Source: Escherichia coli (GTDB lineage: Bacteria; Pseudomonadota; Gammaproteobacteria; Enterobacterales; Enterobacteriaceae). From it: a DNA stretch of 64,000 nucleotides. Shown here piece after piece: positions 16,779-61,116 of the stretch. Under the pieces are notes generated by a model. It saw only the letters and a list, made by a program, of their open reading frames with translations, was not told the DNA's origin and did not search any database. Position 1 is the stretch's first letter, and the number at the start of each line of letters is the position of its first letter. The stretch is from NCBI RefSeq assembly GCF_017348835.2, contig NZ_CP071375.1; one strand, 5' to 3'. Both the position numbers and the translations under genes were made by a program.

Positions 16779-17212
16779 AGCTTTAATCCTTATTGTTGAT
16801 GCTTGTTGTGCCTGAAAATCAGGCGATTCGTCGTTTTAGTAAACAGTACGAACAGATAAACGGTTATTATAATCAACCTGGCTGTGGGTGGCTATAGTTG
16901 CGCTTTCTGTACCGGAGAGAAGCTGCGGTACAGAGCATTTTGCGTTATCTACTCTTGACGCCTGCAAGGGGTAGGTTGGGGAAATATCTTATAGAATCTG
17001 ACTATGAAACTATTCGTATTAGCTCCGATAAGTTTGATGATGAAAACAGAACTGGCGACAACAAGTAGCTGCCTTTCTGATGAATTTACCCCAACTTAAT
17101 ATTGTCAACTATCTTCACAGAATCTCCACAATCTCTTCATTATCAGAATATGCACCATGAATAAGTTAAAAATACTTTCCATTACTTTGGAGAAACGTAT
17201 AATCAGCAAAAA

Positions 17213-17230
17213 TGAGAACGATCATTCTCA
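17213..17230. promoter_or_regulatory. perfect palindrome TGAGAA-N6-TTCTCA about 25 nt upstream of the TetR start; candidate TetR-family operator
   Basis: 6-bp perfect inverted repeat arms; TATAAT-like hexamer at 17198-17203 just upstream. Confidence 0.35.
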
Positions 17231-17255
17231 CCAAGTGATAGGCCAGGAGACAGAA

Positions 17256-17822
17256 ATGACCAGCAAGCTGGAGATACGCCACAAACAGCGTCAGGATGAA
17301 ATCATTAACGCCGCCCGTCGGTGTTTTCGTCGCTGCGGGTTTCATGCCGCCAGTATGTCGCAAATTGCCAGCGAAGCTCAGCTTAGCGTGGGTCAGATAT
17401 ATCGTTACTTCGCCAACAAAGACGCCATTATTGAAGAGATGGTTCGCCGTATCATCGACTTTCGTATTGCCCAAATGGACATTGACGCGCGTACCGATCA
17501 CTTCCCGGAAGTCCTTGCCTTGCGTAAATCCTTAAATGAGGACGACGACGCGCTGATGCTGGAAGTGGCTGCAGAAGCCACACGCAACCCGCGGGTTATG
17601 GCAATGCTTGAAGAAGCTGACGCCAGAATGTTCGCTAACGGTTGTGCACATATGAAAAGAATGCATCCCCATCTTAGCGACGAGCACATTCGTTGCTGCG
17701 TTGAAGTGTTTGCTACCATGATGGAAGGTACGGTTTATCGTCGTTTAACACCGCAAAAAAGCGATCCACAACATCTGCAGGAATTATATCAGGATATTGT
17801 TAGTATGTTGATAAATAAATAA
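17256..17822 (+). CDS. TetR/AcrR-family transcriptional regulator (188 aa from MTSK start; ORF track starts at 17157)
   Basis: N-terminal TetR HTH (SMSQIASEAQLSVGQIYRYFANKDAI); AGGAG RBS 8 nt upstream of 17256. Confidence 0.85.
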   Translation: MTSKLEIRHKQRQDEIINAARRCFRRCGFHAASMSQIASEAQLSVGQIYRYFANKDAIIEEMVRRIIDFRIAQMDIDARTDHFPEVLALRKSLNEDDDALMLEVAAEATRNPRVMAMLEEADARMFANGCAHMKRMHPHLSDEHIRCCVEVFATMMEGTVYRRLTPQKSDPQHLQELYQDIVSMLINK

Positions 17823-17842
17823 GAACAGAATTAACCAATAGC

Positions 17843-17866
17843 GGGGGATATTAATCCCCCTTATTT
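17843..17866 (+). terminator. stem-loop after TetR gene (GGGGGAT-ATTA-ATCCCCC + TTATTT)
   Basis: 7-bp GC-rich inverted repeat followed by T-rich run, 20 nt after TetR stop. Confidence 0.45.
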
Positions 17867-17923
17867 CATTGCGAAATTCATTTCGCGATGCGGGTTCGTT
17901 ATAACTGAATATCCCTGACATAT

Positions 17924-17960
17924 CCTCATTAATTTTAATGAGGAGGGTATTTCTCACCCT
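17924..17960. promoter_or_regulatory. two adjacent inverted repeats (CCTCATTAA-TT-TTAATGAGG; AGGGT-N7-ACCCT) directly upstream of the efflux operon RBS; candidate operator or promoter
   Basis: 9-bp perfect palindrome plus a second 5-bp inverted repeat within 50 nt of the MFP start. Confidence 0.35.
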
Positions 17961-17970
17961 GGAGAAAATA

Positions 17971-19092
17971 ATGAAGTATATAGCAACATCTGTAGTGGCA
18001 ATGCTGCTCTTATCTGGTTGTGATAATACGCAAAGTAACAATTCATCCCCGTCAGAAACAGAAGTCGGCGTTGTTACAGTCAAATCTCAACCGGTCTCGG
18101 TAGTCAGTGAATTAACCGGACGCACCAGTGCTGCGCTCAGTGCCGAAGTACGTCCGCAGGTTGGGGGAATTATCCAGAAACGCTTATTTAAGGAAGGTGA
18201 TCTGGTCAAGGCTGGACAGCCGCTCTACCAGATTGATGCGGCCAGTTATCAGGCTGCATGGAATGAAGCTCGGGCAGCATTACAACAAGCACAGGCACTG
18301 GTAAAAGCCGATTGCCAGAAAGCGCAGCGTTATGCCCGACTGGTGAAAGAGAACGGTGTTTCACAACAGGATGCTGATGATGCTCAGTCTACCTGTGCAC
18401 AAGATAAAGCCAGTGTAGAGGCGAAAAAAGCCGCACTGGAAACTGCGCGCATTAATCTTGACTGGACCACGGTAACCGCACCGATTTCAGGGCGCATTGG
18501 CATTTCGTCGGTAACCCCTGGCGCACTGGTGACCGCGTCGCAAGATACAGCGTTAACGACTATTCGTGGTCTGGATACAATGTATGTCGACCTCACTCGC
18601 TCCAGTGTCGATTTATTACGTCTGCGTAAACAGTCACTGGCGACCAACAGTGACACCATGAGCGTCTCACTTATTCTGGAAGATGGCACAACCTACAGCG
18701 AAAAAGGGCGTCTGGAACTCACCGAAGTCGCTGTAGATGAGTCTACCGGTTCGGTGACATTACGGGCGATTTTCCCCAATCCACAACAGCAGTTATTACC
18801 GGGAATGTTTGTTCGCGCTCGTGTCGATGAAGGCGTGATGGAAGACGCTATTCTCGCGCCGCAACAGGGCGTCACGCGCGATGCTAAAGGCAATGCAACT
18901 GCGCTGGTGGTGAATAAAGACAATAAAGTAGAGCAGCGAACGCTCGAAACGGGAGAAACATATGGTGATAAATGGCTGGTGCTAAACGGCCTGCACAACG
19001 GCGACCGACTGATTGTTGAAGGTTCTGCAAAAGTCACTTCAGGGCAGACGGTCAAGGCTGTTGAAGTTCAGGCTAATGGAGGCAACGCCTGA
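17971..19092 (+). CDS. RND efflux periplasmic adaptor (membrane fusion lipoprotein), AcrA/MexA-like (373 aa from MKYIATS start)
   Basis: lipoprotein signal with lipobox LLSGC; coiled-coil and beta-barrel MFP architecture; GGAG RBS. Confidence 0.9.
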   Translation: MKYIATSVVAMLLLSGCDNTQSNNSSPSETEVGVVTVKSQPVSVVSELTGRTSAALSAEVRPQVGGIIQKRLFKEGDLVKAGQPLYQIDAASYQAAWNEARAALQQAQALVKADCQKAQRYARLVKENGVSQQDADDAQSTCAQDKASVEAKKAALETARINLDWTTVTAPISGRIGISSVTPGALVTASQDTALTTIRGLDTMYVDLTRSSVDLLRLRKQSLATNSDTMSVSLILEDGTTYSEKGRLELTEVAVDESTGSVTLRAIFPNPQQQLLPGMFVRARVDEGVMEDAILAPQQGVTRDAKGNATALVVNKDNKVEQRTLETGETYGDKWLVLNGLHNGDRLIVEGSAKVTSGQTVKAVEVQANGGNA

Positions 19093-22000
19093 TGTTTTCG
19101 CGCTTTTTTGTTCGCCGCCCGGTCTTTGCCTGGGTTATCGCCATTTTGATTATGTTGGCGGGGATTCTGGCTATTCGCACATTGCCCGTCGCGCAATATC
19201 CTGACGTTGCGCCACCGACCATTAAAATTTCAGCCACTTATACTGGTGCTTCTGCCGAAACGCTGGAGAACAGCGTGACTCAGGTTATCGAGCAACAACT
19301 CACTGGGCTTGATAATTTACTCTATTTCAGCTCAACCAGCAGCTCTGATGGTTCGGTCAGTATTAATGTGACCTTTGAACAAGGTACCGATCCAGATACT
19401 GCACAGGTTCAGGTGCAGAATAAAATTCAGCAGGCCGAGTCGCGCCTACCCAGCGAAGTGCAGCAAACGGGTGTTACGGTGGAGAAATCACAAAGCAACT
19501 TTTTGCTGATTGCTGCCGTGTATGACACCACTGACAAAGCCTCCAGTTCGGATATCGCCGACTGGTTGGTTAGTAACGTTCAGGACCCGCTGGCGCGTGT
19601 TGAAGGTGTGGGGAGTCTGCAAGTCTTTGGCGCGGAATACGCTATGCGCATCTGGCTTGACCCGGCCAAACTGGCGTCTTATTCGCTAATGCCTTCAGAC
19701 GTGCAAAGTGCTATTGAAGCGCAAAACGTGCAGGTTACTGCCGGGAAAATAGGGGCATTGCCTTCACCGAATACTCAGCAACTGACCGCAACGGTACGTG
19801 CGCAGTCTCGCTTGCAGACGGTGGATCAGTTCAAAAATATTATCGTGAAAAGCCAGTCAGACGGCGCAGTTGTTCGTATAAAAGATGTGGCTCGTGTTGA
19901 GATGGGCAGTGAAGATTATACCGCTATCGGCAAACTTAACGGTCACCCGTCTGCCGGGGTTGCTGTAATGCTTTCGCCCGGTGCGAATGCGCTGAATACG
20001 GCGACGCTGGTCAAGGATAAGATTGCCGAATTCCAGCGGAACATGCCGCAGGGATACGACATCGCTTACCCGAAAGACAGCACTGAATTTATTAAAATCT
20101 CTGTAGAGGACGTAATTCAGACGCTGTTTGAAGCCATCGTATTGGTGGTTTGCGTGATGTATTTATTCCTGCAAAACCTGCGTGCCACACTGATTCCGGC
20201 GTTAGCTGTCCCCGTCGTTTTGCTGGGCACATTCGGCGTTCTTGCGTTGTTTGGCTATTCGATTAATACCCTGACGTTGTTTGCAATGGTGCTGGCGATC
20301 GGCTTGCTGGTGGACGATGCCATTGTGGTAGTGGAGAACGTCGAACGCATTATGCGTGACGAAGGGTTGCCCGCGCGTGAAGCCACGGAAAAATCAATGG
20401 GCGAGATTTCTGGCGCACTGGTTGCCATTGCGCTGGTGTTGTCAGCCGTATTCCTGCCTATGGCCTTCTTTGGGGGATCTACGGGGGTAATTTATCGTCA
20501 GTTTTCGATAACCATTATCTCCGCAATGCTGCTTTCCGTGGTGGTGGCATTGACCTTGACTCCCGCCCTGTGCGGTTCCGTCCTCCAGCATGTTCCGCCA
20601 CATAAAAAAGGCTTTTTCGGCGCATTTAACCGCTTTTACCGCCGTACTGAAGATAAATATCAGCGAGGCGTAATTTATGTCCTGCGCCGTGCTGCTCGAA
20701 CGATGGGGCTTTATCTCGTACTGGGTGGTGGAATGGCCCTGATGATGTGGAAACTGCCGGGCAGTTTCTTACCCACTGAAGACCAGGGCGAAATCATGGT
20801 GCAGTACACGCTGCCGGCCGGGGCGACCGCTGCCCGTACAGCAGAAGTGAATCGCCAGATTGTTGACTGGTTCCTGATTAACGAGAAAGCAAATACCGAT
20901 GTCATTTTTACCGTTGATGGTTTCAGTTTTAGCGGCAGCGGACAGAACACCGGGATGGCGTTTGTTTCGTTGAAAAACTGGTCTCAACGTAAAGGGGCAG
21001 AAAACACCGCCCAGGCTATCGCCCTACGGGCAACCAAAGAGCTGGGCACAATTCGTGATGCCACGGTATTTGCGATGACGCCGCCAGCCGTTGATGGGCT
21101 GGGGCAAAGCAATGGTTTTACGTTTGAATTGTTAGCTAACGGTGGAACCGATCGCGAAACACTACTGCAAATGCGTAATCAGTTGATAGAAAAAGCGAAT
21201 CAAAGTCCGGAGTTACATTCTGTTCGTGCCAATGATTTGCCACAAATGCCGCAATTGCAGGTAGATATTGATAGTAATAAAGCGGTGTCATTAGGGTTGA
21301 GTTTGAATGATGTCACCGACACCCTGTCCAGTGCGTGGGGCGGTACTTATGTGAATGACTTTATTGACCGTGGTCGTGTGAAAAAAGTCTACATTCAGGG
21401 CGACAGTGAATTTCGTTCCGCGCCGTCAGACTTAGGTAAATGGTTTGTGCGCGGTAGCGATAACGCCATGACACCATTCTCTGCTTTTGCGACCACCCGC
21501 TGGCTGTATGGACCGGAAAGACTGGTGCGCTACAACGGTTCTGCAGCCTATGAAATTCAGGGGGAAAATGCGACTGGCTTTAGTTCCGGCGATGCAATGA
21601 CAAAAATGGAGGAACTGGCAAACAGTCTTCCTGCGGGAACAACCTGGGCCTGGAGTGGTTTGTCATTGCAGGAGAAACTGGCCAGCGGTCAGGCATTGAG
21701 TCTGTATGCAGTTTCTATTCTGGTGGTTTTCCTCTGCCTTGCAGCACTGTACGAAAGCTGGTCAGTCCCGTTCTCGGTCATTCTGGTGATCCCTCTGGGG
21801 CTTCTTGGCGCGGCGCTGGCGGCCTGGATGCGTGATTTAAACAACGATGTTTACTTCCAGGTGGCGCTATTAACCACTATCGGCTTGTCGTCGAAAAACG
21901 CCATTCTGATTGTGGAATTTGCTGAAGCGGCGGTTGCAGAGGGCTATTCCTTGAGTCGTGCGGCATTACGCGCGGCGCAGACTCGTTTACGCCCAATCAT

Positions 22001-22199
22001 TATGACCTCGCTGGCGTTTATTGCGGGGGTAATGCCGCTGGCGATAGCAACCGGCGCAGGGGCGAACAGCCGCATCGCCATTGGTACGGGCATTATTGGC
22101 GGTACGCTGACCGCTACGTTGCTGGCTATTTTCTTTGTTCCTCTGTTTTTTGTACTGGTGAAACGTTTGTTTGCCGGTAAACCGCGCCGTCAGGAGTAA
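19092..22199 (+). CDS. RND (HAE1 family) inner-membrane multidrug efflux pump, AcrB/MexB-like (1035 aa)
   Basis: 12-TM RND architecture, characteristic N-terminus (MFSRFFVRRPVFAWVIAILIML); start overlaps MFP stop (ATGA). Confidence 0.93.
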   Translation: MFSRFFVRRPVFAWVIAILIMLAGILAIRTLPVAQYPDVAPPTIKISATYTGASAETLENSVTQVIEQQLTGLDNLLYFSSTSSSDGSVSINVTFEQGTDPDTAQVQVQNKIQQAESRLPSEVQQTGVTVEKSQSNFLLIAAVYDTTDKASSSDIADWLVSNVQDPLARVEGVGSLQVFGAEYAMRIWLDPAKLASYSLMPSDVQSAIEAQNVQVTAGKIGALPSPNTQQLTATVRAQSRLQTVDQFKNIIVKSQSDGAVVRIKDVARVEMGSEDYTAIGKLNGHPSAGVAVMLSPGANALNTATLVKDKIAEFQRNMPQGYDIAYPKDSTEFIKISVEDVIQTLFEAIVLVVCVMYLFLQNLRATLIPALAVPVVLLGTFGVLALFGYSINTLTLFAMVLAIGLLVDDAIVVVENVERIMRDEGLPAREATEKSMGEISGALVAIALVLSAVFLPMAFFGGSTGVIYRQFSITIISAMLLSVVVALTLTPALCGSVLQHVPPHKKGFFGAFNRFYRRTEDKYQRGVIYVLRRAARTMGLYLVLGGGMALMMWKLPGSFLPTEDQGEIMVQYTLPAGATAARTAEVNRQIVDWFLINEKANTDVIFTVDGFSFSGSGQNTGMAFVSLKNWSQRKGAENTAQAIALRATKELGTIRDATVFAMTPPAVDGLGQSNGFTFELLANGGTDRETLLQMRNQLIEKANQSPELHSVRANDLPQMPQLQVDIDSNKAVSLGLSLNDVTDTLSSAWGGTYVNDFIDRGRVKKVYIQGDSEFRSAPSDLGKWFVRGSDNAMTPFSAFATTRWLYGPERLVRYNGSAAYEIQGENATGFSSGDAMTKMEELANSLPAGTTWAWSGLSLQEKLASGQALSLYAVSILVVFLCLAALYESWSVPFSVILVIPLGLLGAALAAWMRDLNNDVYFQVALLTTIGLSSKNAILIVEFAEAAVAEGYSLSRAALRAAQTRLRPIIMTSLAFIAGVMPLAIATGAGANSRIAIGTGIIGGTLTATLLAIFFVPLFFVLVKRLFAGKPRRQE

Positions 22200-22202
22200 G
22201 TT

Positions 22203-23576
22203 ATGTTGCGTCGTTCTCTTATTTTTCTGGTGCTGTTGAGTGCGGGATGTGTCTCGCTCGATCCCCACTACAGCACGCCTGAATCCCCAATCCCGGCGAC
22301 CTTGCCGGGAGCACAGGGCCAGGGAAAGGCAATCAGCCATGACTGGCAGCAGGTGATCCACGATCCCCGATTGCAGCAAGTGGTGACTATTGCACTGAAC
22401 AGTAACCGCGATGTGCAAAAAGCGATTGCTGATATTGACTCAGCACGGGCGCTCTATGGGCAAACTAATGCGTCGTTATTCCCGACGGTGAATGCGGCCT
22501 TAAGTTCAACCCGCAGTCGTTCGCTGGCGAATGGTACGGAAACCACTGCCGAGGCTGACGGCACGGTGTCCAGTTTTACGTTAGATCTGTTTGGTCGTAA
22601 TCAGAGTTTATCTCGGGCGGCGCGAGAAACCTGGCTTGCCAGTGAATTTACAGCCCAGAACACCCGTTTAACGCTGATTGCTGAAATCAGCACCGCCTGG
22701 CTGACACTGGCGGCCGATAACAGCAACCTGGCCCTGGCAAAAGAAACGATGACCAGTGCAGAAAACTCATTGAAAATTATCCAGCGCCAGCAACAGGTTG
22801 GCACGGCGGCAGCGACAGATGTCAGTGAGGCGATGAGTGTTTATCAGCAAGCGCGCGCCAGCGTTGCCAGCTATCAGACACAAGTGATGCAGGATAAAAA
22901 TGCGCTGAACTTACTGGCAGGTACAACGCTTGAGGAAAATTTGCTACCGGGAACACTGGAAAGCCTGCCGGAACAGATGATAAGTCTGGTTCCTGCGGGA
23001 GTGTCATCTGACGTTCTGCTGCGTCGCCCGGATATCCAGGAAGCGGAACATAATTTGAAGAGCGCCAATGCCGATATTGGCGCGGCGCGGGCTAACTTTT
23101 TCCCGACGATTTCGCTGACTGCCAGCGCTGGTGTTGGCAGTGACGCATTGTCGTCGTTGTTCAGCCACGGAATGCAGATCTGGTCATTTACGCCATCGGT
23201 CACATTACCGCTGTTCACTGGCGGAAGTAATCTGGCGCAGCTTCGTTACGCAGAAGCACAAAAGCGTGGACTCATTGCCACCTATGAAAAAACCGTTCAG
23301 AGCGCATTTAAAGATGTCGCTAACGCACTGGCGCGGCGGACCACGCTTGAAGAGCAACTGGATGCACAGCGCCAGTATGTTAAAGCTGAGCAACAAACGG
23401 TCGATGTTGGCTTGCGTCGCTATCAGACGGGTGTTGGTGATTACCTGACCGTGTTGACGGCGCAGCGCAGCTTGTGGAGCGCACAGCAGGAGCTGCTGGC
23501 ACTGCAACTGACTGATTTTACAAACCGAATCACGCTCTGGCAGTCGCTGGGCGGCGGCATGTCATCACTCAAGTAA
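22203..23576 (+). CDS. outer-membrane efflux lipoprotein, OprM/NodT-family OMF (457 aa)
   Basis: lipobox LSAGC; OMF family repeats; 3 nt after RND stop. Confidence 0.9.
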   Translation: MLRRSLIFLVLLSAGCVSLDPHYSTPESPIPATLPGAQGQGKAISHDWQQVIHDPRLQQVVTIALNSNRDVQKAIADIDSARALYGQTNASLFPTVNAALSSTRSRSLANGTETTAEADGTVSSFTLDLFGRNQSLSRAARETWLASEFTAQNTRLTLIAEISTAWLTLAADNSNLALAKETMTSAENSLKIIQRQQQVGTAAATDVSEAMSVYQQARASVASYQTQVMQDKNALNLLAGTTLEENLLPGTLESLPEQMISLVPAGVSSDVLLRRPDIQEAEHNLKSANADIGAARANFFPTISLTASAGVGSDALSSLFSHGMQIWSFTPSVTLPLFTGGSNLAQLRYAEAQKRGLIATYEKTVQSAFKDVANALARRTTLEEQLDAQRQYVKAEQQTVDVGLRRYQTGVGDYLTVLTAQRSLWSAQQELLALQLTDFTNRITLWQSLGGGMSSLK

Positions 23577-23584
23577 GGAATAAT

Positions 23585-24748
23585 ATGGCTAGAGTCTCTC
23601 TTTCATGGGCATTGATTCTTGGTCTTTTAGCCGGTATCGGCCCGATGTGTACCGATCTTTATTTGCCGGCTTTGCCGGAGATGTCTGAGCAACTGGCGGC
23701 AACCACGACCATAACGCAATTAACGCTGACTGCATCACTGATCGGTCTTGGCGTCGGACAACTGTTATTTGGCCCTCTGAGCGACAAAATAGGGCGTAAA
23801 CGTCCGTTAATCTTGTCGTTGCTATTGTTTATTGTTTCTTCCATTTTGTGCGCGACAACGAACAATATTTACTGGCTGGTGATCTGGCGTTTTATTCAAG
23901 GGATCGCGGGGGCGGGTGGTTCGGTGCTCTCTCGTTCTATTGCTCGTGACAAATATCAGGGAGTAACGTTGACCCAGTTTTTTGCGCTGTTAATGACGGT
24001 GAATGGCCTGGCACCGGTGTTGTCGCCAGTGCTGGGCGGGTACATTGTTAGCACTTTTGACTGGCGCACTTTATTCTGGGTAATGGCTGAAATTAGCACC
24101 GTATTGTTGCTGGGCTGCGTGTTATTTATTAATGAGACCTTGCCAGAAAATAAAAGGGGCTCATCATTGCTATTAACCGGACGAAGCGTGGTGCAGAACC
24201 GCCGTTTTATGCGCTTTTGCCTGATTCAAAGTTTTATGCTGGCAGGTTTGTTTGCGTATATCGGCTCTTCGTCGTTCGTGTTGCAGAAGGAATTTGGCTT
24301 TAGTCCAATGCAATTTAGCCTGGTGTTTGGCCTTAACGGCATCGGACTTATCATTGCTTCATGGATCTTTTCGCGTCTGGCGCGACGGATTAATGCGATG
24401 ACATTGTTGCGAGGTGGCCTGATAGCGGCAATTTTGTGTGCATTGCTCACGGTCTTATGCGCATGGACACAATTGCCCATTCCGGCACTGGTGGCATTAT
24501 TTTTCACTATTGCATTTTGTAGCGGCATCGGCACTGTTGGCGGGGCAGAGGCTATGAGTGCAGTAGGGACGCAGGAATCTGGAACGGCGTCTGCGTTGAT
24601 GGGGATGAGCATGTTTGTCTTCGGCGGTATAGCCGCGCCATTGTCGGGATTTGGCGGAGAAACACTGTTAAAAATGAGTCTGGCAATTACGGTGTGTTAT
24701 ACACTGGCATTCCTGGTTGCTCTCACCAGAATCGACAATCAAAAGTAA
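23585..24748 (+). CDS. MFS transporter, Bcr/CflA drug-resistance subfamily (387 aa)
   Basis: 12-TM MFS with motif GPLSDKIGRKRP; AAGGA RBS; 8 nt after OMF stop. Confidence 0.88.
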   Translation: MARVSLSWALILGLLAGIGPMCTDLYLPALPEMSEQLAATTTITQLTLTASLIGLGVGQLLFGPLSDKIGRKRPLILSLLLFIVSSILCATTNNIYWLVIWRFIQGIAGAGGSVLSRSIARDKYQGVTLTQFFALLMTVNGLAPVLSPVLGGYIVSTFDWRTLFWVMAEISTVLLLGCVLFINETLPENKRGSSLLLTGRSVVQNRRFMRFCLIQSFMLAGLFAYIGSSSFVLQKEFGFSPMQFSLVFGLNGIGLIIASWIFSRLARRINAMTLLRGGLIAAILCALLTVLCAWTQLPIPALVALFFTIAFCSGIGTVGGAEAMSAVGTQESGTASALMGMSMFVFGGIAAPLSGFGGETLLKMSLAITVCYTLAFLVALTRIDNQK

Positions 24749-24752
24749 TGAA

Positions 24753-24789
24753 TACCTCATCCTGAGGGGGGGGCCCTGTCAGGATGAGG
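24753..24789. terminator. stem-loop between convergent MFS gene and sapF (ACCTCATCCTGA...TCAGGATGAGGT)
   Basis: 12-bp perfect inverted repeat with G-rich 13-nt loop in a 50-bp gap between two convergent stops. Confidence 0.5.
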
Positions 24790-33952: not shown

Positions 33953-33992
33953 TGCAAACTAAATGTTTGTCAAATGTTAAATTGAGTTTGCA
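33953..33992. promoter_or_regulatory. AT-rich divergent puuA/puuD control region with inverted repeat TGCAAACT...AGTTTGCA and AAATGTT direct repeats; candidate PuuR operator region
   Basis: 8-bp inverted repeat separated by 24 nt, centred in the 211-bp divergent intergenic region. Confidence 0.3.
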
Positions 33993-34090: not shown

Positions 34091-34855
34091 ATGGAAAATA
34101 TAATGAACAATCCGGTTATCGGTGTCGTAATGTGCAGGAACAGGCTTAAGGGGCATGCGACCCAGACTCTGCAAGAAAAGTACCTGAATGCCATCATCCA
34201 TGCAGGCGGCTTGCCAATTGCGTTACCACATGCGCTGGCGGAACCGTCCTTACTTGAACAACTTTTGCCGAAACTCGATGGCATTTATCTTCCTGGTAGT
34301 CCCAGCAATGTGCAGCCGCACCTATATGGTGAAAACGGCGATGAGCCTGACGCCGATCCCGGGCGTGATCTTCTGAGCATGGCGTTAATTAATGCCGCAC
34401 TCGAAAGGCGCATCCCCATTTTCGCCATCTGCCGGGGGTTACAGGAACTGGTGGTGGCAACCGGTGGTTCGTTGCATCGCAAGCTGTGCGAACAGCCTGA
34501 ATTGCTGGAACATCGGGAAGATCCCGAACTGCCGGTGGAACAGCAATATGCGCCGTCGCACGAAGTTCAGGTTGAAGAGGGGGGATTACTGTCTGCATTG
34601 TTACCTGAATGTAGCAACTTTTGGGTAAACTCTCTGCATGGACAAGGGGCGAAGGTCGTTAGCCCGCAGTTGCGTGTTGAAGCTCGCTCGCCGGATGGCC
34701 TGGTTGAGGCGGTGAGCGTCATCAATCATCCTTTCGCGCTGGGCGTACAGTGGCACCCGGAATGGAACAGTAGCGAGTACGCGCTTTCGCGTATATTGTT
34801 CGAGGGCTTTATCACCGCTTGTCAGCACCATATCGCTGAAAAACAGCGACTCTGA
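34091..34855 (+). CDS. puuD: gamma-glutamyl-GABA hydrolase PuuD (254 aa from MENIMNN start)
   Basis: class I glutamine amidotransferase-like with catalytic Cys motif (AICRG). Confidence 0.93.
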   Translation: MENIMNNPVIGVVMCRNRLKGHATQTLQEKYLNAIIHAGGLPIALPHALAEPSLLEQLLPKLDGIYLPGSPSNVQPHLYGENGDEPDADPGRDLLSMALINAALERRIPIFAICRGLQELVVATGGSLHRKLCEQPELLEHREDPELPVEQQYAPSHEVQVEEGGLLSALLPECSNFWVNSLHGQGAKVVSPQLRVEARSPDGLVEAVSVINHPFALGVQWHPEWNSSEYALSRILFEGFITACQHHIAEKQRL

Positions 34856-42899: not shown

Positions 42900-43070
42900 C
42901 TGTCACACCTTATTTACATCCCCATAGATTATTTGCGTCAGCTCACAAATACGCTTTTTCCCTGGTGAAAAATGATTTCCTGCGTGACTAAAACCCTTGT
43001 GCTCAATTGACAGTTTATTTTCTGCGGAGTAGTCTCTCGTTTCATGGGACCGCTACCACGGAAAGGCAAC

Positions 43071-58369: not shown

Positions 58370-59427
58370 CCGAACCGTTAAAACCACGTATTGATTTCGA
58401 CGGTCCGCTGGAGGTCGATCAGAATCCAAAATTCAGGGCGCAGCAGACCTTTGACGAAAATCAGGCGCAAAATTTTGCCCCGGCCACGCTCGATGAAGCG
58501 CCTGAAGAAGAGGGGCAAGTTGAAGCGGTAATGGATGCAGCGTTACGTCCGAAACGCAGCCTGTGGCGCAAAATGGTGATGGGCGGGCTGGCTCTGTTTG
58601 GCGCAAGCGTTGTCGGGCAGGGTGTACAGTGGACAATGAATGCCTGGCAAACTCAGGACTGGGTGGCGCTGGGTGGATGTGCCGCTGGGGCATTGATTAT
58701 CGGCGCTGGCGTAGGTTCTGTGGTAACAGAGTGGCGGCGCTTATGGCGCTTGCGACAGCGCGCCCATGAACGCGACGAAGCGCGCGATTTGTTGCACAGC
58801 CACGGCACGGGCAAAGGCCGCGCATTTTGCGAAAAACTGGCGCAGCAGGCGGGTATTGATCAGTCGCATCCGGCGCTACAACGCTGGTATGCCTCAATCC
58901 ATGAAACGCAAAACGACCGTGAAGTGGTCAGCCTGTATGCGCATTTGGTCCAGCCAGTTTTAGATGCCCAGGCGCGGCGCGAAATCAGCCGTTCGGCGGC
59001 GGAATCAACGTTGATGATTGCGGTCAGCCCGCTGGCGTTGGTCGATATGGCGTTTATCGCCTGGCGCAATCTGCGTTTAATTAATCGCATCGCCACGCTG
59101 TATGGCATTGAACTGGGATATTACAGCCGTTTGCACCTGTTCAAGCTGGTATTGCTGAATATCGCTTTCGCCGGAGCCAGCGAACTGGTGCGCGAAGTGG
59201 GGATGGACTGGATGTCGCAAGATCTCGCTGCTCGTTTGTCTACCCGCGCAGCTCAGGGGATTGGTGCAGGACTTCTGACGGCACGACTCGGGATTAAAGC
59301 TATGGAGCTTTGCCGCCCGCTGCCGTGGATTGACGATGACAAACCTCGCCTTGGGGATTTCCGTCGTCAGCTTATCGGTCAGGTGAAAGAAACGCTGCAA
59401 AAAGGCAAAACGCCCAGCGAAAAATAA
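58366..59427 (+). CDS. ycjF: YcjF, DUF697/UPF0283 membrane protein (353 aa)
   Basis: 4-nt overlap with ycjX; TM segments. Confidence 0.88.
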
Positions 59428-59486
59428 TGCAATATCGGGTGCTGACCGGATATCTTTACGCCGAAGTGCCCGTTTTTCCGTCTTTG

Positions 59487-59504
59487 TGTCAATGATTGTT
59501 GACA
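59487..59504. promoter_or_regulatory. TyrR-box-like palindrome TGTCAA-N6-TTGACA upstream of tyrR (candidate autoregulatory site)
   Basis: perfect palindrome fitting the TGTAAA-N6-TTTACA pattern, about 70 bp upstream of tyrR ATG. Confidence 0.5.
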
Positions 59505-59574
59505 GAAACCTTCCTGCTATCCAAATAGTGTCATATCATCATATTAATTGTTCTTTTTTCAGGTGAAGGTTCCC

Positions 59575-61116
59575 ATGCGTCTGGAAGTCTTTTGTGAAGA
59601 CCGACTCGGTCTGACCCGCGAATTACTCGATCTACTCGTGCTAAGAGGCATTGATTTACGCGGTATTGAGATTGATCCCATTGGGCGAATCTACCTCAAT
59701 TTTGCTGAACTGGAGTTTGAGAGCTTCAGCAGTCTGATGGCCGAAATACGCCGTATTGCTGGTGTTACCGATGTGCGTACTGTCCCGTGGATGCCTTCTG
59801 AACGTGAGCATCTGGCGTTGAGCGCGTTACTGGAGGCGTTGCCTGAACCTGTGCTCTCTGTCGATATGAAAAGCAAAGTGGATATGGCAAACCCGGCGAG
59901 CTGTCAGCTTTTTGGGCAAAAATTGGATCGCCTGCGCAACCATACCGCCGCACAATTGATTAACGGCTTTAATTTTTTACGCTGGCTGGAAAGCGAACCG
60001 CAAGATTCCCATAACGAGCATGTCGTTATTAATGGGCAGAATTTCCTGATGGAGATTACGCCTGTTTATCTTCAGGATGAAAATGATCAACACGTCCTGA
60101 CCGGTGCGGTGGTGATGTTGCGATCAACGATTCGTATGGGCCGTCAGTTGCAAAATGTCGCCGCCCAGGACGTCAGCGCCTTTAGTCAAATTGTCGCCGT
60201 CAGCCCGAAAATGAAGCATGTTGTCGAACAGGCGCAGAAACTGGCGATGCTAAGCGCGCCGCTGCTGATTACGGGTGACACAGGTACAGGTAAAGATCTC
60301 TTTGCCTACGCCTGTCACCAGGCAAGCCCCAGAGCGGGCAAACCTTACCTGGCGCTGAATTGCGCGTCTATACCAGAAGATGCGGTCGAGAGTGAACTGT
60401 TTGGTCATGCTCCGGAAGGGAAGAAAGGGTTCTTTGAGCAGGCGAACGGTGGTTCGGTGCTGTTGGATGAAATAGGGGAAATGTCACCACGGATGCAGGC
60501 GAAATTACTGCGTTTCCTTAATGATGGCACTTTCCGTCGGGTTGGCGAAGACCATGAGGTGCATGTCGATGTGCGGGTGATTTGCGCTACGCAGAAGAAT
60601 CTGGTCGAACTGGTGCAAAAAGGCATGTTCCGTGAAGATCTCTATTATCGTCTGAACGTGTTGACGCTCAATCTGCCGCCGCTACGTGACTGTCCGCAGG
60701 ACATCATGCCGTTAACTGAGCTGTTCGTCGCCCGCTTTGCCGACGAGCAGGGCGTGCCGCGTCCGAAACTGGCCGCTGACCTGAATACTGTACTTACACG
60801 TTATGCGTGGCCGGGAAATGTGCGGCAGTTAAAGAACGCTATCTATCGCGCACTGACACAACTGGACGGTTATGAGCTGCGTCCACAGGATATTTTGTTG
60901 CCGGATTATGACGCCGCAACGGTAGCCGTGGGCGAAGATGCGATGGAAGGTTCGCTGGACGAAATCACCAGCCGTTTTGAACGCTCGGTATTAACCCAGC
61001 TTTATCGCAATTATCCCAGCACGCGCAAACTGGCAAAACGTCTCGGCGTTTCACATACCGCGATTGCCAATAAGTTGCGGGAATATGGTCTGAGTCAGAA
61101 GAAGAACGAAGAGTAA
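59575..61116 (+). CDS. tyrR: transcriptional regulator TyrR (513 aa from MRLEVF start)
   Basis: ACT-PAS N-terminus, sigma54-activator-like AAA+ core, C-terminal HTH. Confidence 0.95.
   Translation: MRLEVFCEDRLGLTRELLDLLVLRGIDLRGIEIDPIGRIYLNFAELEFESFSSLMAEIRRIAGVTDVRTVPWMPSEREHLALSALLEALPEPVLSVDMKSKVDMANPASCQLFGQKLDRLRNHTAAQLINGFNFLRWLESEPQDSHNEHVVINGQNFLMEITPVYLQDENDQHVLTGAVVMLRSTIRMGRQLQNVAAQDVSAFSQIVAVSPKMKHVVEQAQKLAMLSAPLLITGDTGTGKDLFAYACHQASPRAGKPYLALNCASIPEDAVESELFGHAPEGKKGFFEQANGGSVLLDEIGEMSPRMQAKLLRFLNDGTFRRVGEDHEVHVDVRVICATQKNLVELVQKGMFREDLYYRLNVLTLNLPPLRDCPQDIMPLTELFVARFADEQGVPRPKLAADLNTVLTRYAWPGNVRQLKNAIYRALTQLDGYELRPQDILLPDYDAATVAVGEDAMEGSLDEITSRFERSVLTQLYRNYPSTRKLAKRLGVSHTAIANKLREYGLSQKKNEE

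Follow-up and report, generated by a model that had tools for sequence, protein, structure and literature searches.

A conserved strong TyrR box upstream of tyrR in Escherichia coli, probable site of TyrR autorepression

The tyrR locus

The window analysed here, a stretch of 64,000 nucleotides of Escherichia coli DNA (contig NZ_CP071375.1 of assembly GCF_017348835.2), carries the ycjF and tyrR genes with an intergenic region of 147 bp between them (59428-59574). The region extends from the end of the ycjF open reading frame at 59427 to the tyrR ATG at 59575. The gene downstream is annotated tyrR by RefSeq, and its translated open reading frame scores 1057 bits against the NCBIfam equivalog NF008085 (cutoff 576). 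A profile match to the TyrR/PhhR helix-turn-helix is found at residues 460-507 of TyrR. The tyrR gene is both the regulated gene and the source of the binding protein. An 18-bp element, TGTCAATGATTGTTGACA, occurs once in the window, at 59487-59504 on the + strand. An earlier note on this DNA had placed it upstream of tyrR as a candidate autoregulatory TyrR box, and the single exact occurrence and the limits of the intergenic region bear out that location. The features of the region are the following.

59487..59504, no strand assigned: candidate strong TyrR box, TGTCAA-TGATTG-TTGACA; 10/12 match to the consensus, G-N14-C, conserved, identical to K-12
59487..59492, no strand assigned: left half-site TGTCAA, with the essential G at 59488; invariant in 80/80 sequences
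59499..59504, no strand assigned: right half-site TTGACA, with the essential C at 59503; kept in 76/80 sequences; identical in sequence to the sigma-70 -35 consensus, but with the -10 at a distance of 29 bp
59511..59516, + strand: weak -35-like hexamer TTCCTG (-35 to -30, inferred), 17 bp upstream of the -10; 2/6 match to TTGACA
59534..59539, + strand: -10 hexamer TATCAT (-12 to -7); TATCAT or TATTAT in 80/80 sequences; 6 nt upstream of the mapped transcription start site
59546, + strand: tyrR transcription start site (A) of Kim et al. (2012), 29 nt upstream of the ATG
59575..61116, + strand: tyrR coding sequence, 513 amino acids plus stop; open reading frame, NF008085 equivalog, K-12 b1323

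The ycjF-tyrR intergenic region shows no difference from that of E. coli K-12 MG1655. The 401 bases around the box match 5,415 of 5,426 complete E. coli genomes, in which the genes at this place are annotated ycjF and tyrR. In the tyrR region a K-12 coordinate (NC_000913.3) equals the window position plus 1,327,145, and the box lies at 1,386,632-1,386,649 of the K-12 chromosome. Beyond the intergenic region, the window departs from MG1655 by 54 mismatches in 4 kb and by an insertion of 7.9 kb, and it comes from an E. coli strain other than K-12. The inserted segment, at 16902-24785, is absent from MG1655, in which ycjD separates fabI from sapF. The segment has five open reading frames, all on the + strand, which encode a TetR-family regulator, an HlyD-type membrane-fusion protein, an AcrB-type RND pump, an outer-membrane efflux protein and an MFS transporter.

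Sequence of the box and chance level

A strong TyrR box has been defined as one with at least 10 of 12 matches to the consensus, in which a G and a C 14 bp apart are essential (PMC4374768). The element upstream of tyrR matches TGTAAA-N6-TTTACA at 10 of 12 positions (TGTcAA-N6-TTgACA), and the G and C are found at positions 2 (59488) and 17 (59503). The assignment to this type in the earlier note thus stands, and by the published rule the box is a strong one. The note had also termed the sequence a perfect palindrome. This is correct for the 6-bp arms TGTCAA and TTGACA, which are exact reverse complements, but not for the spacer TGATTG, which is not self-complementary.

Sites with two or fewer mismatches to the TyrR consensus number 4 in the window against 2.2 expected, and at least 4 are present in 19 of 100 shuffled sequences. 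Perfect 6-N6-6 inverted repeats in the window number 22, with ~16 expected. No site in the window other than TGTCAATGATTGTTGACA combines a 10/12 match with a perfect 6-N6-6 inverted repeat. A consensus match by itself is weak evidence, as it is no rarer than chance in the window, and the case for the box therefore rests on context and conservation. What goes far beyond chance is the position at the promoter of the cognate regulator, the presence of the box in 79 of 79 species, and an identity of the arms of 0.996 versus 0.50 for the remaining intergenic positions.

Some other matches in the window lie far from tyrR. The sequence TGTCACACCTTATTTACA, at 42901-42918, matches at 10/12 with G-N14-C and is located just past the pspE terminator hairpin, with the start of ycjM ~150 nt further downstream; the match is probably due to chance. 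The sequences TGTTAAATTGAGTTTGCA (33975-33992, 10/12) and TGGAAAATATAATGAACA (34092-34109, 9/12) map, by comparison with K-12, within the divergent puuA-puuD region or at its edge, and they are more likely related to the control of this region by PuuR than to TyrR.

Conservation in Enterobacteriaceae

The upstream region of tyrR was compared in one genome per species, which gave 80 tyrR loci, 79 of them with enough upstream sequence. Represented are Escherichia, Buttiauxella, Klebsiella, Enterobacter, Citrobacter, Salmonella, Kosakonia and other genera, with TyrR proteins that are 85-99% identical. Counts over 80 sequences include the window itself and are not counts of independent events, as the sequences are related by descent.

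All 79 Enterobacteriaceae species have, within 200 nt upstream of tyrR, a box of at least 10/12 with G-N14-C. The 79 loci have 83 such boxes, with a second box in four loci, and the distance from box to ATG varies from 66 to 81 nt across the 79 species. Elsewhere in these loci such boxes occur at a background rate of 0.026 per kb. The left arm TGTCAA is unchanged in 80/80 sequences. The right arm TTGACA is found in 76/80, and the changes, which are in the Buttiauxella group, affect solely the third, non-consensus base (TTAACA or TTCACA). The essential G and C of the box are invariant in the 80 orthologous sites; spacer positions 8, 9 and 12 are free to vary.

Compared with the window, the arms have a mean identity of 0.996, the spacer of 0.69, the -10 hexamer of 0.96 and the remaining intergenic positions of 0.50. 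No other 18-mer of the intergenic region is as well conserved across the 79 species as the box, with both half-sites conserved, and in most genera the dyad reaches 7 bp (CTGTCAA...TTGACAG). Conserved half-sites together with a variable centre form a pattern that indicates the site of a dimeric protein.

Position relative to the tyrR promoter

A tyrR transcription start site has been reported at 1,384,715 in NC_000913.2, with a 5′UTR of 29 nt (Kim et al., 2012; PLoS Genet, Table S1). The 51-mer given upstream of this start reads TTGTTGACAG...CATATTA. The start is carried to position 59546 of the window through sequence identical to that of K-12. Read support is low (4 reads, one dataset), and the site is accepted mainly because it agrees with the conserved -10 hexamer. 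The searchable text of the Cappable-seq supplements, which represent a second dataset, has no entry near 59546, and for tyrR an internal site only is given by Mendoza-Vargas (2009). A minor start with 2 reads is also listed 411 nt upstream of the tyrR ATG (Kim et al., 2012); mapped from K-12, it falls at 59164, inside ycjF.

The distance between the box and the -10 hexamer is exactly 29 bp in 80/80 sequences, whereas the -10 and the ATG are separated by a variable 31-46 nt. Relative to the transcription start, the box is at -59 to -42, centred on -50.5, and it ends 6 bp upstream of TTCCTG. The first bases of this weak -35-like hexamer are retained, TTC in 79/80 sequences and TTCC in most, and a CTTCC motif is conserved in the footprint. 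The box is therefore in the promoter region of a gene for which negative control by TyrR has been reported (PMC5343134).

A conserved CTG, which is GTG in E. coli, is present at 59528-59530 (-18 to -16), 3 nt upstream of the -10 hexamer and 42 bp from the start of the left arm. It resembles the start of a TyrR half-site and is followed by no conserved right arm.

The tyrR box among other TyrR boxes

The K-12 upstream regions of aroF, tyrP, aroL, mtr, aroP, tyrB and aroG were put through the same box scan. Boxes of 10-12/12 with G-N14-C were found ~200 nt or less before the start of aroF, tyrP, aroL, mtr, aroP and aroG; the scan found no box of 10-12/12 with G-N14-C upstream of K-12 tyrB. The aroL sites agree with the TyrR sites in the RegulonDB-based supplement of Mendoza-Vargas (2009). 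The tyrR box shares with the boxes of these six genes the 18-bp length, G-N14-C, the A/T-rich centre and the position within about 200 nt of the start. With 10/12 matches and 6/6 arm symmetry, it is on a par with the 10/12 boxes of aroF, aroL and aroP. The comparison with regulon boxes that the earlier note had proposed thus comes out in its favour, the tyrR box being equal in quality to those upstream of established members. Its arms display a symmetric departure from the consensus (C at position 4, G at position 15), which leaves the symmetry at 6/6; otherwise this symmetry is found in aroG only.

A further difference concerns the number of boxes. In aroF, tyrP, aroL and aroP a strong box is accompanied by a weaker one at a distance of 23 bp, whereas tyrR is without such a partner. 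Every 18-mer in 59380-59620 was scored against the TyrR consensus, with 6/12 as the listing threshold. No weak box with G-N14-C is present at a 23-bp offset, and the 18-mers at +23 and -23 score ~2/12 and 4/12 by hand count. As these are not box-like, the tyrR operator is a lone strong box and not a tandem of strong and weak boxes. Two candidates for a partner box were rejected: TGACCGGATATCTTTACG (59443-59460, 7/12) is not conserved, and TGTCATATCATCATATTA (59529-59546, 6/12) is without the C and is conserved only in its first bases. Mapped TyrR boxes elsewhere in the region had been named as an observation that would speak against the autoregulatory reading, and this finds no support, as no other site of at least 8/12 is present in the ycjF-tyrR intergenic region.

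Outside the intergenic region, the 3′ end of the ycjF coding sequence has a 7/12 site with G-N14-C, GGTGAAAGAAACGCTGCA (59382-59399), whose start precedes the strong box by 105 bp, or about 10 helical turns. Its counterpart in other Escherichia and Citrobacter species scores 9-10/12 (e.g. GGTAAAAGAGACGTTACA), a conservation that is confounded by coding constraint.

The aroG operator is like that of tyrR in having a single strong, fully symmetric box and no adjacent weak box, and the repression described for aroG is modest (PMC4374768). The two differ in position. The aroG box overlaps the -10 (PMC4374768), whereas the tyrR box, at -59 to -42, precedes the -35 region.

Across the gammaproteobacteria, tyrR is a core member of the TyrR regulon (PMC5343134). 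In the RegPrecise reconstructions of TyrR/PhhR regulons, tyrR is among the most conserved members, in six lineages (PMC5343134). This agrees with the 79/79 found here in Enterobacteriaceae, where the TyrR proteins are at least 85% identical.

Alternative readings of the element

The right arm TTGACA (59499-59504) is a perfect sigma-70 -35 consensus and is conserved in 76/80 sequences, and the element might for this reason be mainly a promoter signal, with TTGACA as the -35 of a tyrR promoter and the left arm incidental. The spacing argues strongly against it. The conserved TATCAT is 29 bp downstream in 80/80 sequences, far outside the 16-18 bp of a sigma-70 promoter, and the hexamer found 17 bp from TTGACA, CAAATA, matches poorly and lacks conservation. 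The promoter scan gave no + strand promoter that uses the TTGACA arm, and the mapped start fits the TATCAT promoter. The left arm, needless for a -35, is invariant in 80/80 sequences; in the Buttiauxella group it is the right arm that departs from TTGACA, with the TyrR consensus score kept. A pure -35 element is ruled out by the spacing and the conservation of the left arm, and we consider a mainly promoter-related role to be highly improbable. As judged from the mapped start, the box (-59 to -42) is located upstream of the core promoter, which does not use the TTGACA arm as its -35. This same placement at -50.5, upstream of a poor TTCCTG, is an architecture commonly seen in promoters that depend on an activator. 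In tyrP, mtr and aroP P3, strong boxes that precede the -35 are the sites from which TyrR activates (PMC7142922), and TyrR bound upstream of the weak -35 of tyrR might likewise recruit RNA polymerase, with positive or dual autoregulation as in tyrP and mtr. TyrR control of tyrR has, however, been described as negative (PMC5343134), and the K-12 annotation of TyrR as a 'dual regulator' concerns the whole regulon. Positive or dual autoregulation is thus judged very unlikely; an activator role in particular conditions is a small possibility.

The symmetry of the element could also reflect a structure in RNA or DNA, e.g. a hairpin that ends or stabilizes the ycjF transcript, or the site of another regulator of CRP/FNR type. 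The RNA is predicted to fold into a short hairpin of -8.5 kcal/mol (z = -1.84), and the element is located 60 nt past the ycjF stop codon. Against a hairpin function, equally good folds are obtained in 10 of 200 shuffled sequences, there is no T-run after the element, and a scan of 59300-59700 detected no terminator-like site. The right-arm changes in the Buttiauxella group are without compensation in the left arm, such that pairing is broken, yet they are tolerated at a position that is non-consensus for TyrR. An intrinsic terminator of ycjF was accordingly rejected: the stem is A/T-rich and lacks a T-run, the z value is as given above and the arm changes are uncompensated. The consensus for CRP is TGTGA-N6-TCACA. 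A CRP site resembles the tyrR box in its palindromic TGT.A...T.ACA appearance and in a position upstream of a weak -35, but the half-site sequence is different and the TGTCA and TGACA cores are separated by 8 bp instead of 6 bp, a spacing that rules out a CRP-type site. The chance that a nucleic acid structure or another regulator accounts for the element is close to negligible.

Autoregulation of tyrR

We take TGTCAATGATTGTTGACA to be the sequence given as the TyrR box of tyrR in the Pittard reviews of 1991 and 2005, which are said to describe a roughly two-fold autorepression of tyrR that is independent of aromatic amino acids; a 1982 paper by Camakaris and Pittard is entitled 'Autoregulation of the tyrR gene'. 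The TyrR autoregulatory operator at tyrR is already known and is not new. The full 18-mer TGTCAATGATTGTTGACA was not found in the searchable text of the literature, where its 12-nt halves occur in unrelated papers only.

The 18-bp element very probably serves as the operator for repression of tyrR by its own product. From the analysis, this reading is based on the sequence, its agreement with the strong-box definition, its location at the cognate gene, the geometry of the promoter and the depth of conservation; TyrR binding, the negative sign of the regulation, the definition of a strong box and the transcription start are from the literature. E. coli TyrR negatively controls tyrR (PMC5343134). 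The autorepression that the earlier note had proposed is therefore supported by the identity of tyrR, the quality of the box, its conservation in 79 species and this reported negative control.

In the proposed mechanism, a TyrR dimer would bind with its C-terminal helix-turn-helix domains on the half-sites TGTCAA and TTGACA. Because the operator consists of one strong box and has no weak box beside it, its occupancy should need neither formation of the tyrosine-driven hexamer nor a neighbouring site. Occupancy of a lone box fits a modest, cofactor-independent negative feedback. TyrR bound at -59 to -42 would occupy the DNA on which the alpha C-terminal domains and sigma region 4 of the polymerase dock, and fewer initiations would result. 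A centre at -50.5, upstream of a weak -35, is unusual for simple steric repression. Hindrance of the polymerase from -59 to -42 is for this reason put forward as what we infer to be the most likely step.

Autoregulation might instead go beyond occlusion by one dimer and involve a higher-order or looped TyrR complex, or anti-activation at the alpha C-terminal domain, neither of which has been described for the tyrR promoter. This is suggested by the fixed 29-bp spacing (80/80), by the distance of the CTG, which at 42 bp corresponds to four turns, and by the ycjF site ten turns (105 bp) upstream. We regard it as unlikely, with some small chance of being correct.

Beyond a correct annotation the significance of the tyrR box is little, as it is the classical operator of a well-studied E. 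coli regulator. The comparison of Enterobacteriaceae adds a clean picture of this operator, with invariant half-sites that flank a variable spacer in 79 species, a fixed 29 bp to the -10, a position at -50.5 and no weak partner. The box may be of use in engineering the tyrR promoter of strains for aromatic amino acid production and as a positive control for motif scans.
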